Shown here one piece after another: positions 8,491 through 17,717 of a stretch of DNA of 64,000 nucleotides (within the stretch, counting starts at the first letter, position 1; the number at the start of each line of letters is the position of its first letter). Both the position numbers and the translations under genes were made by a program. The stretch is taken from assembly GCA_041687395.1 (NCBI GenBank), contig JAWLCA010000013.1:51470-115469 (forward strand). Reading direction: 5' to 3'. The notes under the pieces are model-generated. The model was given only the letters and a program-made list of their open reading frames with translations. It was not told the origin of the DNA and made no database searches. The stretch is from Paracoccaceae bacterium. GTDB taxonomy: Bacteria; Pseudomonadota; Alphaproteobacteria; Rhodobacterales; Rhodobacteraceae.

Positions 8491-9621
8491 TCAGGCGGCC
8501 GGCTCGACCGCTGGTCTTGGCACGTAGGCGACCTCGGACAGATTGACCGCGCGACCGCTTCTTGCCGATTCCTGCGCCGCAAGGCCCATGGCCACGGCCC
8601 ACCAGCCGTCATCGAGCGACACTTCGGGTGCTCCCTCTCCCCTGACGACCGCGTTGAAGCGGGCGTGCTGGTAGTAAGTGGAACCATTGTGGTCGCCCGC
8701 CAGTAGAAGAACCGGGTCGATCGGAAGCTCCAGGACGCGCGGCCCCTTCGGCGCGCGCGGGCTGACGATCAATTGCGGTGTCGGGGGGGTGCCGAGATCC
8801 CTCGGCCAGAACCGAGTCGGCCCGGGGACGAGACATTCGATCTTCCCGTTGGGTCCGATGGCGCAGATCTCTTCCTGGTAGCGGCTGCCTTCGGCGAACA
8901 TGCACAACTCCAACATCGCGCGCGTGCCGCGCGAGAATTCGACCATGGCATAGCCGTGATCCCAGATGTCTGGCGCCTGCCCGGCGATTCGTTCTTCGCG
9001 GTGGTTCACGGCCTGCCCGGCGCTTGCCATGATGAGCACGGGGTCATCGCCAAGGATCAGCCGCATCAGGTCGAAGAAATGACAGCATTTCTCGACAAAG
9101 GTGCCACCTGTCCGCGCGTTGAAGCGGTTCCAGCCACCGACCTTTTCAAGAAATGGGAAGCGATGCTCGCGGATTGTGAGCATGCTGACGCCTCCGGTCG
9201 CGGTCGTTGCCTGCGCGATCAGGGCCGCGACGGGCGGCATGTAGCGGTATTCCATGGCCACCCAGATCGGCGCCGGGTAGCTGTCGCGCAGCGTGGCAAG
9301 CCGCGCCGCGTCGGAGGAGTTGGTGAAAAGCGGCTTCTCCACCAGAAGCGGCAAGGGCCGTGTGGCGGCGATCTGTTCGATCTGGTCCAGATGAAAGTCG
9401 TTCGGGCTGGCGATAAGAATGGCGTCCAATTCTGGCCCGGCCAGCAACTCGGCGATCGAACCGACCATCCGCGCCTCCGGCGCGATCAGGGCTGCCGCCG
9501 CGCGCATCCCTGCGTCCGGCTCGAAGATCGCCATCACGCACGCGTCCTGAACCAGCGCGATGTTGCGCAGGTGCTCCTGCCCCATCATGCCGCAGCCGAT
9601 CATCCCGTAGTTTGTCTTCAT
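8491..9621 (-). CDS. Gfo/Idh/MocA family NAD(P)-dependent oxidoreductase
   Basis: Internal start MKTNYGMIGCGMMGQEHL (Rossmann GxGxxG; ATG complement 9619-9621) within ORF 8491..10095. Lies 10 nt downstream of the GntR gene on the same strand. Confidence 0.85.
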   Translation of the reverse strand: MKTNYGMIGCGMMGQEHLRNIALVQDACVMAIFEPDAGMRAAAALIAPEARMVGSIAELLAGPELDAILIASPNDFHLDQIEQIAATRPLPLLVEKPLFTNSSDAARLATLRDSYPAPIWVAMEYRYMPPVAALIAQATTATGGVSMLTIREHRFPFLEKVGGWNRFNARTGGTFVEKCCHFFDLMRLILGDDPVLIMASAGQAVNHREERIAGQAPDIWDHGYAMVEFSRGTRAMLELCMFAEGSRYQEEICAIGPNGKIECLVPGPTRFWPRDLGTPPTPQLIVSPRAPKGPRVLELPIDPVLLLAGDHNGSTYYQHARFNAVVRGEGAPEVSLDDGWWAVAMGLAAQESARSGRAVNLSEVAYVPRPAVEPAA

Positions 9622-9631
9622 CCCCGTTGCC

Positions 9632-10336
9632 CTATCTGAGACGCGCCACATAGCGCACCGTTTGATCGTCAAACCAGGTACGCGAGGCTTCCGCCCGTGC
9701 ACCATCCTGAGCCCAAGAAATCCGCACCACGTGCCCGACGCGCTCACCACGCGCGCGCGGAAAGCACGGCGGCGCCCACTCGGGAACCGGCTGCACGTCG
9801 ATCCTGTCTTCGGCCCGGGCGATCCAGAAGCCGAGCCGCGTGCGATAGTAGAGATAGAGCGACTCGGACAGGTCTGATACGTCGATCCGAGGGGTGTAGC
9901 TGCCGTCCAGCCAGATCTCTTCCACGGCCCCCGGTTTGCCTGACAGAAATCGGAGGCGGCGGATCCGATGCGCGTCGGGCGCAGATCCGAAGTCCGGAAG
10001 GTCGTCGGGTTTCGGCAGCCTTGCGACCGACAGCACCTGCGCAGTCGGTAAGCCGCCCCCCTCGGCAAGCTCCAGACGGAAGAAGGCATAGACACTGTCC
10101 ATCCCTGTCCGGGCGCGAACGTAGTTTCCGGACCCTTGAACCCGCTCCAAAAACCCTTTCTCCGTCAGGTCTGCCAGCGCCCGGCGCAGGGTTCCGATTG
10201 CGATTCCGAATTGCGCGGCCATCTCGCGTTCGGGCGGCAGGCGTTCCCCATCCAGCAACCGACCGGCAGCAATCTCGCGGATCAGCATTTCACTGATCTG
10301 CTGATAAAGTGGCAGAGAACCGGTTTCAGGCGCCAT
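9632..10336 (-). CDS. GntR/HutC-family transcriptional regulator (wHTH + UTRA)
   Basis: LPLYQQISEMLIREIAAGRL...ERLPPEREMAAQFGIAIGTLRRALADLTEKGFLERVQGSGNYV. The ATG at 10336 is preferred. The track start at 10363 is a GTG. Confidence 0.85.
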   Translation of the reverse strand: MAPETGSLPLYQQISEMLIREIAAGRLLDGERLPPEREMAAQFGIAIGTLRRALADLTEKGFLERVQGSGNYVRARTGMDSVYAFFRLELAEGGGLPTAQVLSVARLPKPDDLPDFGSAPDAHRIRRLRFLSGKPGAVEEIWLDGSYTPRIDVSDLSESLYLYYRTRLGFWIARAEDRIDVQPVPEWAPPCFPRARGERVGHVVRISWAQDGARAEASRTWFDDQTVRYVARLR

Positions 10337-10353
10337 CCGAACCTGGAAAAAAA

Positions 10354-10399
10354 ATTGTTGCACGATTGATCTACATCATGGCAAACGGAGTGCAACAAT
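10354..10399. promoter_or_regulatory. Perfect 10-bp inverted repeat in divergent promoter region (candidate GntR operator pair)
   Basis: ATTGTTGCAC (10354-10363) and GTGCAACAAT (10390-10399), separated by 26 nt. Located between the GntR gene and the LLM monooxygenase gene. Confidence 0.45.
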
Positions 10400-10426
10400 A
10401 TTCTGCATCTGAGGCTGGGGGATTCG

Positions 10427-11584
10427 ATGGCAGTTGTGCCGGTGACGTCAGCCGACCTCGACGCGTCCGAGGTCTCGTGGTTCGCGGCCCTCTGTTCCGA
10501 CGATTATCGATACCTCGGCGTACCCGACGGCGCGTTGCGCTCCAGTTGGGAGCATTGCTCGAACATTGTGAAAACCGCCGAAACGCAAGGCTTCCGCAAC
10601 ATCCTGTGCCCCTCGTCCTATCAGGTGGGCCAGGACACGCTGACCTTCGTCGCCGGGTGTGCCCCGATCACCAGCAAGATCAATCTGCTGGCGGCAATTC
10701 GCTGTGGAGAGCTTCATCCGATCATGCTGGCACGCACGGTCGCGACGCTGGATCACATGCTCAAGGGTAGGCTTACGCTGAACGTCATCTCATCCGACTT
10801 TCCCGGCGAAAAGGTCGACAGCGCCTTCCGTTACCAGCGCAGCCACGAGGTGGTGGAGATTCTGCGCCAAGCCTGGACACGCGACACCATCGATCACGAA
10901 GGCGAGGTCTATCAGTTCAAGGGTCTCACCACCGACCCGGCGAAACCCTATCAGCAGAACGGTGGCCCCCTGCTCTACTTTGGCGGCTACAGCCCCGATG
11001 CGCTGGAGTTGTGCGGCGCACAGTGCGACGTTTACCTGATGTGGCCCGAGACGAAGGAGCAACTGGCCGCACGCATGCAAGCGGTGCACGAACGCGCGGC
11101 CGCCCATGGGCGTACGCTCGACTATGGCCTACGGGTCCACATGATCGTCCGCGACACTGAAGCGGAGGCTAAGGAATATGCCGAAGAACTGGTGTCGAAG
11201 CTGGACGACGAATATGGTCGATTGATCCGCGAGCGCGCGCATGATGCGGGCAGCCTTGGCGTCTCGCATCAGGCGCGGGCGCGGGAACTTGCCGACCAGT
11301 TCGGCTACATCGAACCCCATTTGTGGACGGGCATCGGGCGGGCAAGATCGGGGTGCGGCGCAGCACTGGTCGGATCGGCGGATCAGGTTATGTCCGAAAT
11401 CGAGGCGTACCGGAAAATGGGCATTCGTGCCTTCATCTTCTCCGGCTATCCTCATCTTGACGAGTGCGAACACTTCGGACGACTCGTCATGCCGGAACTG
11501 AAAACCTGCTCGCTGCCCGAGGAATACGGGCGCGTGCCAATCGAAACCCCGGCGACGCCGCTGGGGGTGGGAGAGCGCCGCTGA
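10427..11584 (+). CDS. LLM-class flavin-dependent monooxygenase, alkanesulfonate monooxygenase (SsuD)-like; SmoC-like candidate
   Basis: 385 aa. Luciferase-like TIM-barrel blocks resemble SsuD (NILCPSSYQ..., LLAAIRCGELHPIMLARTVATLDHMLKGRLTLNVISSDFPGE). Confidence 0.8.
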   Translation: MAVVPVTSADLDASEVSWFAALCSDDYRYLGVPDGALRSSWEHCSNIVKTAETQGFRNILCPSSYQVGQDTLTFVAGCAPITSKINLLAAIRCGELHPIMLARTVATLDHMLKGRLTLNVISSDFPGEKVDSAFRYQRSHEVVEILRQAWTRDTIDHEGEVYQFKGLTTDPAKPYQQNGGPLLYFGGYSPDALELCGAQCDVYLMWPETKEQLAARMQAVHERAAAHGRTLDYGLRVHMIVRDTEAEAKEYAEELVSKLDDEYGRLIRERAHDAGSLGVSHQARARELADQFGYIEPHLWTGIGRARSGCGAALVGSADQVMSEIEAYRKMGIRAFIFSGYPHLDECEHFGRLVMPELKTCSLPEEYGRVPIETPATPLGVGERR

Positions 11585-12477
11585 TGGAACGGATCGAACT
11601 GGCCGAGGGGCTCGAATTCAGCCGCATCGTCTACGGGATGTGGCGGCTGGGCGACGATGTCGACCGCAGCGCGGCCCATGTCCAGGCCAAGATCGAAGCC
11701 TGTCTGGAGCAGGGCATCACCACCTTCGACCAAGCCGACATCTATGGCGATTACGAATCCGAGACGATCCTGGGTCAGTGCCTGAAGGATCAGCCCTCGC
11801 TTCGCGCAGGAATGGAAATCGTGACGAAATGCGACATCATGCTGATTTCGGGCAAGTACCCGGACCGGCGGGTGAAACATTACGACACCTCGGCGGCGCA
11901 TATCACCGCATCGGCCGAGGCGAGCCTCCGGCACATGGGGATCGAGACGATCGATGTGCTGCTGCTGCACCGGCCCGACCCGCTGATGGACCATCTGGAG
12001 ACCGGCCGCGCGCTGGACGATCTGGTGGACAGCGGCAAGGTGCGCGCGATCGGCGTCTCGAACTTCAAGCCGCACGACTGGAACCTGCTGCAATCGGCGA
12101 TGGAACAGCTGCTTGTCACCAACCAGATCGAGGTAAGCCTGCTGGCGCCGGAGGCTTTCACGAACGGCGACGTGGCATTCCTGCAGGAACGCGGCATCCC
12201 GCCCATGGCCTGGTCGCCGCTGGCTGGCGGACGCTTGTTCGAGCCGGAGAACGGCACACTGCGTGCCTCGCTGGCCGAGGTGGGTGAAAAATGGGGAGTG
12301 GACGAGACCGCCGTCGCCGTTGCGTGGCTTCTGGCGCATCCGTCCATGGTCCTGCCGGTCATGGGGACCAACAACCTTGATCGGATCCGACGGTTTTCGG
12401 ACGCGACCAAGGTCGCGATGGACCGCGAAACCTGGTTTGACCTCTACACGCTCGGCCTTGGGCACGAGGTGCCATGA
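11584..12477 (+). CDS. Aldo/keto reductase (YdhF-like); SmoB-like candidate
   Basis: Internal start MERIELAEGLEFSRIVYGMWRL at 11584, forming an ATGA overlap with the upstream stop. AKR blocks present: FDQADIYGDYESE, IDVLLLHRPD, IGVSNF. Confidence 0.85.
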   Translation: MERIELAEGLEFSRIVYGMWRLGDDVDRSAAHVQAKIEACLEQGITTFDQADIYGDYESETILGQCLKDQPSLRAGMEIVTKCDIMLISGKYPDRRVKHYDTSAAHITASAEASLRHMGIETIDVLLLHRPDPLMDHLETGRALDDLVDSGKVRAIGVSNFKPHDWNLLQSAMEQLLVTNQIEVSLLAPEAFTNGDVAFLQERGIPPMAWSPLAGGRLFEPENGTLRASLAEVGEKWGVDETAVAVAWLLAHPSMVLPVMGTNNLDRIRRFSDATKVAMDRETWFDLYTLGLGHEVP

Positions 12478-12998
12478 TGGCTGACGGAGGACTTGGTCAG
12501 GACATGCAAGATTTCACTCCTGGCCCCAACACGGCGCGCGACCTTCGCGACGCGATGGGCCGGTTTGCGACAGGCGTGACCGTGATCACGACGCGGGGCG
12601 CGGACGGCCCCGTTGGGATAACAGCCAACAGCTTTGCCTCGGTTTCTCTCGACCCGCCGCTGGTGCTTTGGGCACCGGGAAAATTCTCGCGCCGGTTCGA
12701 GTACTTTGTCGAGGCACCGCACTTCGCGATACATGTTCTTGGTCTCGAGCAGGCCGAACTTGGCTACCACTTTGCGCGCAACGGCTTCGATTTCGACTTG
12801 CCCGGCCTCACGTCAAGCGCGGAGGGAACCCCTCTGCTGTCTGGCTGCCTGGCGCGGTTCGACTGCCGCCTGGCGGCGTCGCACGACGCCGGTGACCATG
12901 CCATCGTCGTCGGTCATGTGCTGCGGGCCAGCTTGCGCGAAGGGGAGCCGCTCGTATTCTCGCAGGGCAGATACGGGGGCTTTGACGCGAAGGACTGA
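12474..12998 (+). CDS. Flavin reductase family protein (NAD(P)H:FMN oxidoreductase); SmoA/SsuE-role candidate
   Basis: 174 aa with FATGVTVITTRGADGPVGITANSFASVSLDPPLVLW, typical of the flavin_reduct domain. Shows a 4-nt start/stop overlap with the AKR gene. Confidence 0.85.
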   Translation: MMADGGLGQDMQDFTPGPNTARDLRDAMGRFATGVTVITTRGADGPVGITANSFASVSLDPPLVLWAPGKFSRRFEYFVEAPHFAIHVLGLEQAELGYHFARNGFDFDLPGLTSSAEGTPLLSGCLARFDCRLAASHDAGDHAIVVGHVLRASLREGEPLVFSQGRYGGFDAKD

Positions 12999-13068
12999 TC
13001 GACCGCAAGGGGGCGACAGGACCCCGGTCATGCCCCGCGACGGGGCGGGAGGGAGAGGGAGGACCGTC

Positions 13069-13719
13069 ATGGGAGCATTGCTTGCCCTGCTGACACCGTT
13101 GCGTCTGCTGAACGAAACGCTTCTGGCGGCCGGGCGCGCAGTGGGAATCGTGTGCGTGGCGCTGATGGTCGCGGCGATACTGATCCAGGTGTTCTTTCGC
13201 TACGTGCTTGGCAACGCACTGCCCTGGCCAGACGAGGCCGCGCGCTTTCTGATGCTGTGGATGACCGGGCTGATGGCGCCCATGGCCTTCCGCCGCGGCG
13301 GCTTCGTGGCAATCGACATGGTGGTGCGTGCCCTGCCCCTTCGTCTTGGCGCCATCCTGTCTCTTGCGCTTCTCTGCCTATCACTTCTGGTCCTGGTGGT
13401 TGGCTTTCGCATCGGCGCAAACGAGGTCTGCGGCTTCGGTGGTCGGTTCGATACCGTTTCGCTCTACGTGCCCGACGCTGGCGTGCGGGTGAACATGGCG
13501 GCGATCTGCGGCTTCGACATCATCAATGCGTTCTCGATCGCCGAAACCCGCGGCTGGATGAAGGTGCCGCGCTGGTGGATGATGCTGTCGATCCACGTTG
13601 GTGTCGGGCTGATGATTCTGGTCTGCGTCGAGTTGATCCTGCGCAATCTCGTCTCTCTTCTCGGCGGCGCACACCGGCTGCCCGTGATCCGCGGCGCAGA
13701 GATGGCGGGGGCCGAGTGA
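13069..13719 (+). CDS. TRAP transporter small permease (DctQ family)
   Basis: Start MGALLALLTPLRLLNE, preceded by GGGAGAGGGAGG. Four hydrophobic helices. The listed ORF 12634..13719 is over-extended. Confidence 0.8.
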   Translation: MGALLALLTPLRLLNETLLAAGRAVGIVCVALMVAAILIQVFFRYVLGNALPWPDEAARFLMLWMTGLMAPMAFRRGGFVAIDMVVRALPLRLGAILSLALLCLSLLVLVVGFRIGANEVCGFGGRFDTVSLYVPDAGVRVNMAAICGFDIINAFSIAETRGWMKVPRWWMMLSIHVGVGLMILVCVELILRNLVSLLGGAHRLPVIRGAEMAGAE

Positions 13720-15008
13720 TGCTGGTCCTCTTCCTTCCGATGTTCCTGATTTTCCTGCTGATCGGCCTGCCGGTGTTCTTCGGGCTGATCGCCGCGCCCG
13801 GGATCCTGTTGTGGCTGAACGGACAGGAGCGCGACATCGTGCTCTTGTATCGCAACGTTTACAACGGCATGGACAGCTTCCCCCTGATGGCGATCCCGTT
13901 CTTCATGCTGGCGGGCGAACTGATGAACCGCGGCGGCATCACCATGCGGCTGGTCGAATTCGCACAGGCCCTGATGGGGCATCTGCGCGGCGGGCTTGCC
14001 CATGTGAACGTGCTGTCGTCGATGCTGTTTGCGGGTCTGTCCGGGTCGGCGGTGGCCGACACCTCTGCACTCGGGTCCATGCTGATCCCGGCGATGGAGA
14101 AGAATGGCTATACGCGACGGTTCGCTGCCGCGATCACCGCAGCCAGCTCGGTCATCGGGCCGATCATCCCGCCCTCGGGCATCATGATCATCTACGCCTA
14201 TGTCATGGGCGAAAGCGTTGCCGCGCTGTTCCTCGCCGGAATCGTTCCGGGGATCATGGTGGGCCTCGGCCTGATGGTGATGATCAAGCTGATGGCCGAC
14301 AGATATGATTTCCCCGTGGCCACCCGCCGCTACACCTGGGGCGAGAAGGGCCAGGCGAGCCTCAAGGCCTTCTTCCCGCTGTTGACCCCGGTGATCATCC
14401 TGGGCGGCATCCTTGCCGGTGTCTTCACCCCGACCGAGGCGGCGGCCGTCGCGGTCGGTTATGCGATGCTGATCGGGCTTTTCGTTTTGCGCACGCTGAA
14501 GTTTTCCGAACTGCCCGACGTGATGGGGCGTGCCGGTCTGACGTCTGCCGTCGTTCTGCTGCTGGTGGGCGCGGCCATGGCGTTCAAGACGGTGGTCAGC
14601 CTTTCGCATGCACCAGAGATGCTCGCCGGGATCATCCTCGGGCTGTCCGAGAACCCGTTGATCCTGCTGTTCCTGATCAACATCCTGCTGTTCATCGTCG
14701 GCATGTTTCTGGACGCCGGCCCGGCGATCATCATCCTTGGCCCGATTCTCGGGCCCATATTCACCTCGATGGGCGTCGATCCGGTGCATTTCGCCATCAT
14801 CATGTCGGTAAACCTGACGGTCGGACTGGCGACACCGCCGATGGGGCTCGTGCTGTTCGTGGCCTCTTCCGTCTCGGGTGAGCGGGTGGAATCGATCGCC
14901 CGTGCCATCCTGCCGTTCCTGGCCGTAGAGGTCATCGTGATCTTCCTGATCACTTACTTTCCGGCCTTTTCGCTTACTGTCCCGCGGCTCGCGGGATTCA
15001 TGAACTGA
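13719..15008 (+). CDS. TRAP transporter large permease (DctM family)
   Basis: Start MLVLFLPMFLIFLLIGLPVFFG at an ATGA overlap with the dctQ stop. 429-aa polytopic membrane protein with DctM-like blocks (MDSFPLMAIPFFMLAGELMN). Confidence 0.88.
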   Translation: MLVLFLPMFLIFLLIGLPVFFGLIAAPGILLWLNGQERDIVLLYRNVYNGMDSFPLMAIPFFMLAGELMNRGGITMRLVEFAQALMGHLRGGLAHVNVLSSMLFAGLSGSAVADTSALGSMLIPAMEKNGYTRRFAAAITAASSVIGPIIPPSGIMIIYAYVMGESVAALFLAGIVPGIMVGLGLMVMIKLMADRYDFPVATRRYTWGEKGQASLKAFFPLLTPVIILGGILAGVFTPTEAAAVAVGYAMLIGLFVLRTLKFSELPDVMGRAGLTSAVVLLLVGAAMAFKTVVSLSHAPEMLAGIILGLSENPLILLFLINILLFIVGMFLDAGPAIIILGPILGPIFTSMGVDPVHFAIIMSVNLTVGLATPPMGLVLFVASSVSGERVESIARAILPFLAVEVIVIFLITYFPAFSLTVPRLAGFMN

Positions 15009-15032
15009 CTTCAGACAACAGGGAGGACCAGA

Positions 15033-16091
15033 ATGCTCAAGACAACGCTCAAGTCGCTGATGGTGGCGACGCTGCTGGCGGGAACTGCCGGCTGGGCCGG
15101 CGCGCAGGAGATCACGCTGCGCGCCACGGCCACCTCGAACACCGACGACGAGGATTACGACGGCCTCGTCGTCTTCAAGAAGTATGTCGAGAACGCCTCG
15201 AACGGACGCATCGCCGTTGAACTTTTCATCGGCACCCAACTTTGCGTGACCGGCGAGGAATGCCTGCAAGGCGTGGCCGACGGCTCCATCGACATCTTCA
15301 TCTCCACCTCGGGCGGGGCCGCGGGGATCTTCCCCTACATCCAGGTGCTGGACCTGCCCTACCTGATGAGCGACGACCGCATCGCGGAGCATGTCCTGTC
15401 GGGCGACTTCGTGCGCTACATGCGCGACTTGGCCCTGCAGGACAGCGACAACACGATCCGGCTGATGACGGTGGGCAATACCGGCGGTTGGCGCAACTAT
15501 GCCAATACGATGAAGACAGTGCAGACACCGGCTGATCTGGAGGGTCTGAAGCTGCGCACCGTGCCCGCCGATCTGCCGCAGGTGCTGGCGACTGCGCTGG
15601 GCGCCGCGCCAACGCCGATCCCGTGGCCGGAATTGTTTACCTCGCTCCAGACTGGCGTGGTCGAGGGGACGGCGAACGGCATCACCGACATCATGAACAT
15701 GAAGTTCCCTGATGCCGGCCTGAAATACATCACGCTTGATGGCCACAGCTACATGGGCGCGTTCTGGTGGATGAATAACGAACGGTTCCTTGGGCTGCCC
15801 GACGACCAGAAGGCGATCGTGCTCGATGGGTTCTACGACCTCCAGCAGGCGACCTTTGCCAGCCCGAAGCGGAAGGAGATCCCGGCCTATGAGGCCTTCG
15901 TGGCCTCGGGCGGCGAGATCTATGTGCCTACGGCCGAGGAGAAGGCCCAGTTCCGGGACGCCGCCGCGCCCGCCTTCGAATGGTTCGTCGAGAACGTGCG
16001 GATGGGACCCGAGGTGCTGGACGCATTCGAGGCTGCGATCGGAGAGGCAGAGGATGCAGTCGGTGCGCAGCGCGCGGCCGACATGAACTGA
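15033..16091 (+). CDS. TRAP transporter substrate-binding protein (DctP family)
   Basis: 352 aa with signal peptide MLKTTLKSLMVATLLAGTAGWAGA and a GGGAGGA SD. DctP-like body. Ligand not inferable from sequence by eye. Confidence 0.85.
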   Translation: MLKTTLKSLMVATLLAGTAGWAGAQEITLRATATSNTDDEDYDGLVVFKKYVENASNGRIAVELFIGTQLCVTGEECLQGVADGSIDIFISTSGGAAGIFPYIQVLDLPYLMSDDRIAEHVLSGDFVRYMRDLALQDSDNTIRLMTVGNTGGWRNYANTMKTVQTPADLEGLKLRTVPADLPQVLATALGAAPTPIPWPELFTSLQTGVVEGTANGITDIMNMKFPDAGLKYITLDGHSYMGAFWWMNNERFLGLPDDQKAIVLDGFYDLQQATFASPKRKEIPAYEAFVASGGEIYVPTAEEKAQFRDAAAPAFEWFVENVRMGPEVLDAFEAAIGEAEDAVGAQRAADMN

Positions 16092-16192: not shown

Positions 16193-16435
16193 CTAGCCGC
16201 CCTTTCGGATGAGATAGATTTGCTGTCCCGCGGCGTCGTCGGCCGCGAGCAGGGCGTGTCCGGCCTCGGAGCAGAAATGCGGCACATCGATCACGGCAGC
16301 TGGATCGGTCGCAATGACGCGAAGGACTGCCCCGGCGGGCAGCCCCTTCAGCCGCTTGCGGGCCTTCAACACGGGCAAAGGGCACAGCAGCCCAGCCGCA
16401 TCAAGCTCGTCATCCCATATGCGCTGTTCATCCAT
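16193..16435 (-). CDS. TusA/SirA-family sulfurtransferase-like protein
   Basis: 80 aa with the CPxP motif (LLCPLPVLKARKRL). Confidence 0.8.
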   Translation of the reverse strand: MDEQRIWDDELDAAGLLCPLPVLKARKRLKGLPAGAVLRVIATDPAAVIDVPHFCSEAGHALLAADDAAGQQIYLIRKGG

Positions 16436-16538: not shown

Positions 16539-17717
16539 ATGACACTGCTCACCCTGCCCTTCTCGCCCGAGGAGTATGATGCCCGAATTGCCCGCACGCG
16601 GTTGGCGATGGATGAGCGAGGGCTTGATCTGCTGATCGTCTCGGACCCGTCGAACATGGCGTGGCTGACCGGGTATGACGGCTGGTCGTTCTACGTGCAT
16701 CAGGCGGTGGTGCTGGGGCACGAAGGCGCGCCGATCTGGTGGGGGCGCGCGATGGACGGACTGGGCGCCCAGCGAACCGTCTGGATGGATCCGGGCCACA
16801 TCGTCGGCTACGACGACACCTATGTCCAGAACACCGCCAAGCATCCGATGGAGACGCTGGCCACGCTGGTCCACGAGCGTTTCTCGGGCGTGGAGCGCAT
16901 CGGGGTGGAGATGGACAACTACTACTATTCCGCCGCCGCCCATGCGGTGCTGACGGCTGCGCTGTCGGACGCCGTGATCTTCGATGCGACGGGCGTGGTG
17001 AACTGGCAACGCGCGGTCAAGTCCGAGGCCGAGATCGGCTTCATGCGGCGCGCCGCAAAGATCACCGACGCGATGATGGCGACGATCCGCGACAAGGCCG
17101 AGCCGGGGATGCCGAAGAACGCGTTGGTGGCCGAGATCTACGCCACCGCGATCCGCGGGGCCGAGGGGCATTGGGGCGACTATCCGGCGATCGTGCCGAT
17201 GGCGCCGTCGGGCGTCGATGCCTCGGCGCCGCATCTGACCTGGGACGACCGGCCGTTCCTTCAGGGCGAGCCGACGTTTTTCGAGATTGCGGGCGTCTAC
17301 CGCCGCTATCACGCGCCGCAGTCGCGGACGCTGTTCTTCGGTCCGCCGCCCGACAAGTATCGCCGCGCCGAGGCGGCGGTGAAGGAGGCGGTCGAGGCGG
17401 GGTTGGAGATGGCGCGGCCGGGCAATACCTGCGCTGACCTGGCCAACGCCTTCAACGGGGTACTGAACCGGCTGGGGTTTCAGAAGGACAGCCGCTGCGG
17501 GTATTCCATCGGGCTGAGCTATCCGCCCGACTGGGGCGAACGGACGATGTCGTTCCGGCGCGACGACCAGACGGTGCTGGAGGCCGGGATGACGTTTCAT
17601 TTCATGCCGGCGCTGTGGCTGGACGATGGCGGGATCGAGCTGACGGAGCCGATCCTGATCACCGAGGATGGGCCGGAACTGCTGTGTTCGACCCCGCGGG
17701 AGATGTGGGTGAAATAG
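16539..17717 (+). CDS. M24-family metallopeptidase (creatinase/Xaa-Pro peptidase/ectoine-hydrolase-like)
   Basis: 392 aa with a creatinase-type N-domain plus an M24 pita-bread fold (FEIAGVYRRYHAP, GYSIGLSYPPDWGE). GGAGG SD present. Confidence 0.75.
   Translation: MTLLTLPFSPEEYDARIARTRLAMDERGLDLLIVSDPSNMAWLTGYDGWSFYVHQAVVLGHEGAPIWWGRAMDGLGAQRTVWMDPGHIVGYDDTYVQNTAKHPMETLATLVHERFSGVERIGVEMDNYYYSAAAHAVLTAALSDAVIFDATGVVNWQRAVKSEAEIGFMRRAAKITDAMMATIRDKAEPGMPKNALVAEIYATAIRGAEGHWGDYPAIVPMAPSGVDASAPHLTWDDRPFLQGEPTFFEIAGVYRRYHAPQSRTLFFGPPPDKYRRAEAAVKEAVEAGLEMARPGNTCADLANAFNGVLNRLGFQKDSRCGYSIGLSYPPDWGERTMSFRRDDQTVLEAGMTFHFMPALWLDDGGIELTEPILITEDGPELLCSTPREMWVK

Follow-up and report, generated by a model that had tools for sequence, protein, structure and literature searches.

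The window analysed here, a stretch of 64,000 nucleotides from Paracoccaceae contig JAWLCA010000013.1, contains eight genes that very probably make up a complete cluster for the catabolism of sulfoquinovose (SQ), a sulfosugar of plants and algae, by the sulfoquinovose monooxygenase pathway (sulfo-SMO, also called sulfo-ASMO), of the Roseobacter type. Clusters of this type have been closely studied since 2021. The reading of the locus turns on the Gfo/Idh/MocA gene at 8491-9621, which, judged from its sequence, is SqgA, an NAD+-dependent sulfoquinovosidase of glycoside hydrolase family 188 (GH188). An earlier note on this DNA had proposed that the locus lacks any glycosidase, that the Gfo/Idh/MocA protein was an added oxidoreductase in a possibly modified pathway, and that a free sulfosugar or sulfonate is taken up. 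Because the gene would encode SqgA, the predicted pathway has no missing step and no modification, and uptake could extend beyond the free sugar. The orthology of the proteins, the conservation of published catalytic residues, and a gene order kept across species were all observed.

The sulfoquinovosidase and its partner enzymes

The Gfo/Idh/MocA protein of the window matched PDB entry 8ZN9 at E 1.3e-160. This structure is SqgA of Roseobacter denitrificans (RdSqgA, locus tag RD1_2308), in the description of which seven residues were named (PMC12780224). The SqgA proteins of Arthrobacter and Flavobacterium, whose structures founded GH188 as a family of NAD+-dependent sulfoquinovosidases (PMC10755693), were matched at E 8.6e-108 (8QC3) and E 2.3e-105 (8QC2), whereas the best ordinary dehydrogenase, an inositol dehydrogenase, reached only E 1.9e-16. 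All seven named residues (K98, Y127, R156, L160, K162, E179, and H183 in RdSqgA numbering) were kept at an offset of -2; this offset was obtained from the ungapped alignment to 8ZN9 and an assumed tag of 34 residues, and it places K98 on the lysine of the EKP motif. The domains present were PF01408, the N-terminal NAD-binding Rossmann domain, and PF02894. On the strength of the match to 8ZN9 and the seven conserved residues, the claim that no glycosidase is present does not hold. GH188 is near-universal in the sulfo-SMO clusters of the Roseobacter clade, and the same clusters were once believed to be without a sulfoquinovosidase and restricted to free SQ (Kaur et al. 2023, PMC10755693); the earlier conclusion repeats an older view in the literature that has since been overturned.

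The monooxygenase aligned without gaps over residues 1-384 to the crystallised SQ monooxygenases (PDB 7OLF, 769 bits; 7OH2, 762 bits), with E values of 1e-229 to 1e-231 as compared to 1e-60 for enzymes of the SsuD type. The best SsuD/MsuD-type chain scored 209 bits, about 560 bits below the SmoC structures, and the protein fell below the NCBIfam equivalog cutoff for SsuD (TIGR03565; 247.6 against 518.2 bits). Sulfur scavenging of the SsuD type was rejected on these scores. In the comparison that the earlier note had proposed, the enzyme went with SmoC and not with the NtaA or RutA types. It keeps W206, R236, H238, Y341, and H343 of the sulfonate site as well as the FMN (flavin mononucleotide) phosphate gate, Y136/S189. 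The aldo-keto reductase was likewise closest to SmoB (PDB 7BBY/7BBZ, E 1e-124), with the next family, YdhF-like, at 3.6e-67; after the 22-residue tag offset of 7BBZ had been applied, the catalytic tetrad D71/Y76/K104/H151, the glucose contacts R152/K120, and the NADPH contacts were all found to be kept. These SmoC and SmoB residue lists were proposed as bioinformatic signatures by Sharma et al. (PMC8795539). SmoA, encoded directly after smoB, is the predicted partner flavin reductase; it was compared not with Atu3277 itself but with the syntenic SmoA of L059, an Agrobacterium-type locus, to which it is 48% identical. The structure matches, the conserved residues, and the synteny in the survey described below bear out the proposal of the earlier note that the monooxygenase, aldo-keto reductase, flavin reductase, and GntR regulator are orthologous to SmoC, SmoB, SmoA, and SmoD of Agrobacterium tumefaciens.

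Related loci, uptake, and sulfite

A gene-neighbourhood survey, also suggested in the earlier note, covered 80 species-representative loci with the closest SmoC (82-89% identity), a sample biased towards relatives of the window SmoC. The loci were searched with the window proteins and with the GH31 and ATP-binding cassette (ABC) transporter proteins of an Agrobacterium-type locus. SqgA, GntR, SmoC, SmoB, SmoA, and the DctQMP proteins of a TRAP (tripartite ATP-independent periplasmic) transporter were encoded in the order and orientation of the window in 51 loci, from Pannonibacter, Rhizobium/Allorhizobium/Peteryoungia, Pseudorhodobacter, Tabrizicola, Cypionkella, Flavimaricola, and others. One more TRAP-type locus lay on a contig ending before sqgA, 21 loci, several of them on short contigs, encoded SqgA but not this TRAP system, and seven had a GH31 sulfoquinovosidase in place of SqgA, five of these with the ABC importer SmoEFGH. 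Counted by glycosidase, SqgA occurred without GH31 in 72 of the 80, GH31 without SqgA in the same seven, and both together in none, the remaining locus being the one that ends before sqgA; nor did the TRAP system occur with GH31 in any of the 80. Despite the bias of the sample, the survey shows the architecture of the window to be the usual one rather than an oddity produced by rearrangement.

An orthologue of the GntR regulator was syntenic in every locus, Agrobacterium-type loci included (59-74% identity), and one of SmoA in 75 (47-62%); for the syntenic transporter proteins, identity ranged over 45-72% (DctQ), 64-90% (DctM), and 70-82% (DctP). Across Rhodobacterales and Rhizobiales, SmoC was unusually conserved, its identity of 82-89% standing above that of SmoA, DctQ, and the regulator. 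This pattern suggests that SmoC is under very strong constraint, that the cluster has spread laterally, or both. Three loci (L006, L007, and L009, from Mesorhizobium and Pseudomonadota metagenome-assembled genomes) had smoA directly after smoC, at 10001-11700. In these, sqgA and gntR were present, and a smoB orthologue and the TRAP system were not detected within 10 kb; they may represent a rearranged sulfo-SMO variant.

Three described systems invite comparison. Like that of the window, the cluster of R. denitrificans OCh 114, from RD1_2308 (sqgA) to RD1_2315 (dctP), has sqgA placed upstream of the sulfo-SMO genes, includes a TRAP transporter whose binding protein is a DctP, and contains no GH31 enzyme (Kaur et al. 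2023, PMC10755693; Ma et al. 2025, PMC12780224). Its eight consecutive locus tags equal the eight genes of the window, a match by number and not by alignment; the window differs in its SqgA, roughly two-thirds identical, and in a promoter with its own perfect 10-bp repeat. The primary description of the Roseobacter cluster is said to be that of Liu et al. 2023 in ISME J. In A. tumefaciens C58 (Atu3277-3285; Sharma et al. 2022, PMC8795539), the smoC-smoB-smoA order, the divergent GntR gene, and the chemistry (SQ converted into sulfite plus 6-oxo-glucose, and on to glucose) are the same as those predicted for the window, and SmoC (residues 1-384, 762 bits) and SmoB (residues 1-296) align with the window proteins without gaps. 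Agrobacterium-type loci also share an ATTGAT element upstream of smoC with the family to which the window cluster belongs. They differ in using the SmoEFGH importer and the GH31 enzyme SmoI, as compared to DctPQM and the GH188 enzyme SqgA. The sulfoquinovose dioxygenase (sulfo-SDO, or sulfo-ASDO) clusters of Marinomonas and Marinobacterium have a homologous TRAP system, named SqoKLM, in which SqoK belongs to UniRef50_V9WJD9, and share with the window the oxygenolytic cleavage of the C-S bond of SQ, a 6-dehydroglucose reductase of the SquF/SmoB type, and the lack of a YihQ-type GH31 enzyme (Ye et al. 2023, PMC10507154). Cleavage in those clusters is by SqoD, an Fe/alpha-ketoglutarate dioxygenase, whereas in the window it would be by the two-component flavin monooxygenase SmoC/SmoA.

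All three TRAP components (DctP, DctQ, and DctM) were recognised in the window by Pfam and NCBIfam models. The GH31 enzyme, both permeases, the binding protein, and the ATPase of L059 (Agrobacterium sp.) gave no tblastn match at E 1e-3 anywhere in the 64 kb, in agreement with the proposal that a TRAP system stands here in place of the SmoEFGH importer. Sharma et al. had remarked that some smo clusters have non-ABC transporters (PMC8795539), and a TRAP importer has also been described in Roseobacter sulfo-ASMO clusters (PMC10507154). The N-terminus of DctP is signal-peptide-like, and R154, R175, and N215 were invariant in 121 close homologues. These residues are spaced like the Arg/Arg/Asn set that, in SiaP and other DctP-family proteins, binds the anion. 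The putative triad indicates an anionic ligand; it does not distinguish sulfonate from carboxylate and is not proof of SQ. DctP has a large family, to which 3,729 of the candidates scored belong at E <=1e-60. Its nearest named members, from Plastorhodobacter, Roseicitreum, and Gemmobacter, put the window in Paracoccaceae/Rhodobacterales; one protein in the collection searched was 100% identical to the window DctP, a protein labelled 'uncultured Roseobacter sp.' matched at 74%, and identity in the Roseobacteraceae survey loci L044, L056, and L077 was 70-74%. In R. denitrificans, the TRAP system and its binding protein were proposed as the importer of SQ and sulfoquinovosyl glycerol (SQGro), and the dctP product, RD1_2315, was tested by surface plasmon resonance (SPR) for binding of both (Ma et al. 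2025, PMC12780224). The window DctP is a probable SQ/SQGro receptor.

A gene of family PF03601 (YeiH/SuyZ-like, 'putative sulfate exporter family') was located just after dctP in 24-26 of the 52 TRAP-type loci, about 250 bp past it in L001. Some Agrobacterium-type loci carry such a gene as well; in L059 it lies at 12590-13609. In these relatives, the membrane protein probably provides an exit route for sulfite or sulfate.

Gene layout and the divergent promoter

Genes were called from a listing of open reading frames together with Pfam and NCBIfam scans of the window proteins (Table 1). Every gene named in the earlier note was recovered at its coordinates and with the family predicted.

Table 1. 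Features of the predicted sulfo-SMO cluster and of the gene that follows it, in window coordinates
Feature	Position	Strand	Length	Remarks
sqgA, predicted sulfoquinovosidase (Gfo/Idh/MocA fold, GH188)	8491-9621	minus	376 aa	Pfam GFO_IDH_MocA N- and C-terminal domains
GntR/HutC-type regulator (SmoD equivalent)	9632-10336	minus	234 aa	GntR helix-turn-helix PF00392 and UTRA PF07702
Divergent promoter/operator region	10351-10402	none		Conserved core ATTGATCTACATCA at 10365-10378, between the repeat arms
smoC (squD), predicted FMNH2-dependent sulfoquinovose monooxygenase	10427-11584	plus	385 aa	Luciferase-like
smoB (squF), predicted NADPH-dependent 6-oxo-glucose (6-dehydroglucose) reductase	11584-12477	plus	297 aa	Aldo-keto reductase
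smoA, predicted flavin reductase	12474-12998	plus		Pfam Flavin_Reduct PF01613, 129.5 bits; best NCBIfam match, FerA-type flavin reductase
dctQ, TRAP small membrane subunit	13069-13719	plus	216 aa	Pfam DctQ PF04290
dctM, TRAP large membrane subunit	13719-15008	plus	429 aa	Pfam DctM PF06808, 389 bits; TIGR00786, 426 bits
dctP, TRAP periplasmic solute-binding protein	15033-16091	plus	352 aa	Pfam DctP PF03480, 177 bits; TIGR00787
TusA-like gene	16193-16435	minus		Outside the cluster

The start of sqgA was placed at the ATG at 9621 (MKTNYG...), giving a protein shorter than the mechanical open reading frame, and the gene begins 10 bp past the stop of the regulator on the same strand. An alternative GTG start is possible for dctM at 13716. 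The earlier note had described ATGA coupling at both junctions of the smo genes; it is present between smoB and smoA (a 4-nt overlap), whereas smoC and smoB meet in TGATG with a 1-nt overlap. A gap of 70 bp separates smoA from dctQ, and one of 24 bp separates dctM from dctP; dctQ and dctM overlap. Such tight or overlapping junctions fit a single smoCBA-dctQMP operon. No paralogues of the cluster genes were found in the window. The flanking genes (encoding an IalB-like protein, a HerA-like ATPase, a DoeA-like hydrolase, and a family-5 binding protein) are unrelated, which sets the limits of the cluster at 8491 and 16091.

The TusA-like gene lies on the strand opposite to the operon. Its link to sulfite handling, offered earlier as speculation, found no support: neither it nor the DoeA-like gene was adjacent to the cluster in any of the 80 related loci, and TusA was set aside as a member of the system. 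Divergent from it, at 16539-17717 on the plus strand, is a gene for a creatinase/M24-fold protein that scored 593 bits against the model for ectoine hydrolase DoeA (cutoff 613); this gene may be a sign of a locus for ectoine use that has nothing to do with the SQ cluster. G+C content is about 65% over the window; it is lowest in the 2-kb bin at 10001-12000 (0.612 as compared to 0.63-0.71 elsewhere), which takes in gntR and smoC together with the promoter.

The perfect 10-bp inverted repeat reported earlier between the regulator gene and smoC is real, with arms ATTGTTGCAC at 10354-10363 and GTGCAACAAT at 10390-10399. The 64 kb holds no further copy of the 10-mer; 0.09 matches were expected by chance, and only one of 100 shuffled sequences reached two. 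When the gntR-smoC intergenic regions were aligned, a conserved consensus emerged, AAATTGATACAC-T-ATTGATCTACATCAA...GTGYTACGCAAG, in which the Agrobacterium-type loci take part. A tandem ATTGAT-N4-5-ATTGAT was present in all 80 related loci, and a TTGAT-N4-ATCA palindrome in 66 of them and in the window. In 67 of 74 anchored sequences (73 loci and the window), a distance of 59-63 nt separated the core from the smoC ATG downstream of it. In the window, the central ATTGATCTACATCA is retained and occurs just once in the 64 kb; the first ATTGAT has become ATTGTT, and the downstream GTGYTACGCAAG block has been replaced. The arms of the inverted repeat coincide exactly with these two altered blocks, on either side of ATTGATCTACATCA.

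The repeat is therefore non-random and private to this genome. In other loci, the outer blocks have complementary bases at only 5-8 of 10 positions, so the inner conserved element is the better operator candidate, and the outer repeat was set aside as the primary one. The ATTGAT tandem or palindrome is probably the operator of the GntR regulator; no description of this candidate was found in the literature searched. A scan for promoters and terminators returned nothing usable: the one promoter-like site fell within smoA in the wrong orientation, and sites resembling terminators, several of them within genes, numbered about twice the shuffle mean.

Proposed pathway and competing explanations

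The proposed order of events is as follows: periplasmic DctP would capture SQGro and/or free SQ, and the membrane subunits DctQM would import the ligand, driven by an ion gradient. In the cytoplasm, SqgA would cleave the glycoside to SQ, its bound NAD+ acting catalytically through transient oxidation at C3. SmoA would reduce FMN with NAD(P)H, and SmoC would cleave the C-S bond of SQ at the expense of FMNH2 and O2, yielding sulfite and 6-oxo-glucose. Finally, SmoB would reduce 6-oxo-glucose with NADPH to glucose, which would enter central metabolism. The GntR/UTRA regulator, encoded in the same orientation as sqgA and divergently from smoC, presumably represses both promoters; its site is likely the ATTGAT repeat or palindrome in the 90-bp intergenic region, and SQ or a derivative may release it.

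One competing explanation would have the cluster without a glycosidase, taking up only free sulfosugar, with the Gfo/Idh/MocA protein as an additional sugar dehydrogenase altering the route, for instance by oxidising an intermediate. The best NCBIfam match of this protein is indeed inositol 2-dehydrogenase, although its 92 bits fall short of the cutoff of 355, and Liu et al. 2023, as cited in PMC10507154, assumed uptake of free SQ only. Against it stand three crystallised and assayed SqgA proteins at E 1e-105 to 1e-160, as compared to 1e-16 for a dehydrogenase, the seven conserved residues, and a distribution strictly complementary to that of the GH31 sulfoquinovosidase. Moreover, growth on SQGro has been reported for R. 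denitrificans, whose cluster is of the same type (PMC12780224). We regard this explanation as very unlikely. We also consider it highly improbable that the substrate is a different sulfosugar or sulfonate, for example sulfofucose, or an aliphatic sulfonate from which sulfur is scavenged. SmoC does belong to an SsuD-like branch of the luciferase-like monooxygenases, its specificity is read from sequence, and there is no structure of a SmoC-SQ complex (PMC8795539). However, it lies about 560 bits nearer to two SQ-specific SmoC proteins than to SsuD/MsuD, scores below the SsuD cutoff, and is coupled with an orthologue of SmoB that keeps the glucose contacts and with a predicted SQ-specific glycosidase.

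The transporter offers a third point of doubt, as it might serve an unrelated carboxylate and be merely adjacent, SQ entering by another system. The best solved-structure matches to DctP reached only E 1e-32 and have varied ligands, and its R154/R175/N215 triad would suit either class of anion. Yet in 51-52 of the 80 species, spread over Rhodobacterales, Rhizobiaceae, and Pannonibacter, smoA is followed by dctQMP in an unchanged order; the junctions in the window are operon-like; the cluster has no other importer; and the SPR tests in R. denitrificans concerned the counterpart of this very protein. The chance that the TRAP system is a bystander therefore appears slight indeed.

A complete sulfo-SMO cluster of the Roseobacter type remains by far the preferred reading, and several observations weigh against it. 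The window promoter departs from the family consensus at two of its three conserved blocks, and no PF03601 exporter was found anywhere in the 64 kb. The source organism is known here from its genes alone, and we infer the orthology of the window DctP to the SPR-tested RD1_2315 from synteny and from the Roseobacteraceae survey loci. Two blocks replaced by a private repeat, together with the missing exporter, mean that regulation or sulfite handling could differ from the characterised examples, a possibility that we consider unlikely, with a small chance of being correct.

The system itself is already known and has been experimentally characterised in close relatives. The combination of TRAP transporter, SqgA, and smoCBA has been published (PMC10755693, PMC12780224, PMC10507154) and is the majority form among the closest relatives; the window adds one more carrier organism and nothing new on the chemistry or the transporter. 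What goes beyond the literature searched is regulatory only, namely the candidate operator and the private variant of it in this genome. This conserved candidate GntR operator would be easily testable. The practical lesson for annotation is that Gfo/Idh/MocA genes located beside smo genes would be better read as GH188 sulfoquinovosidases than as accessory dehydrogenases.

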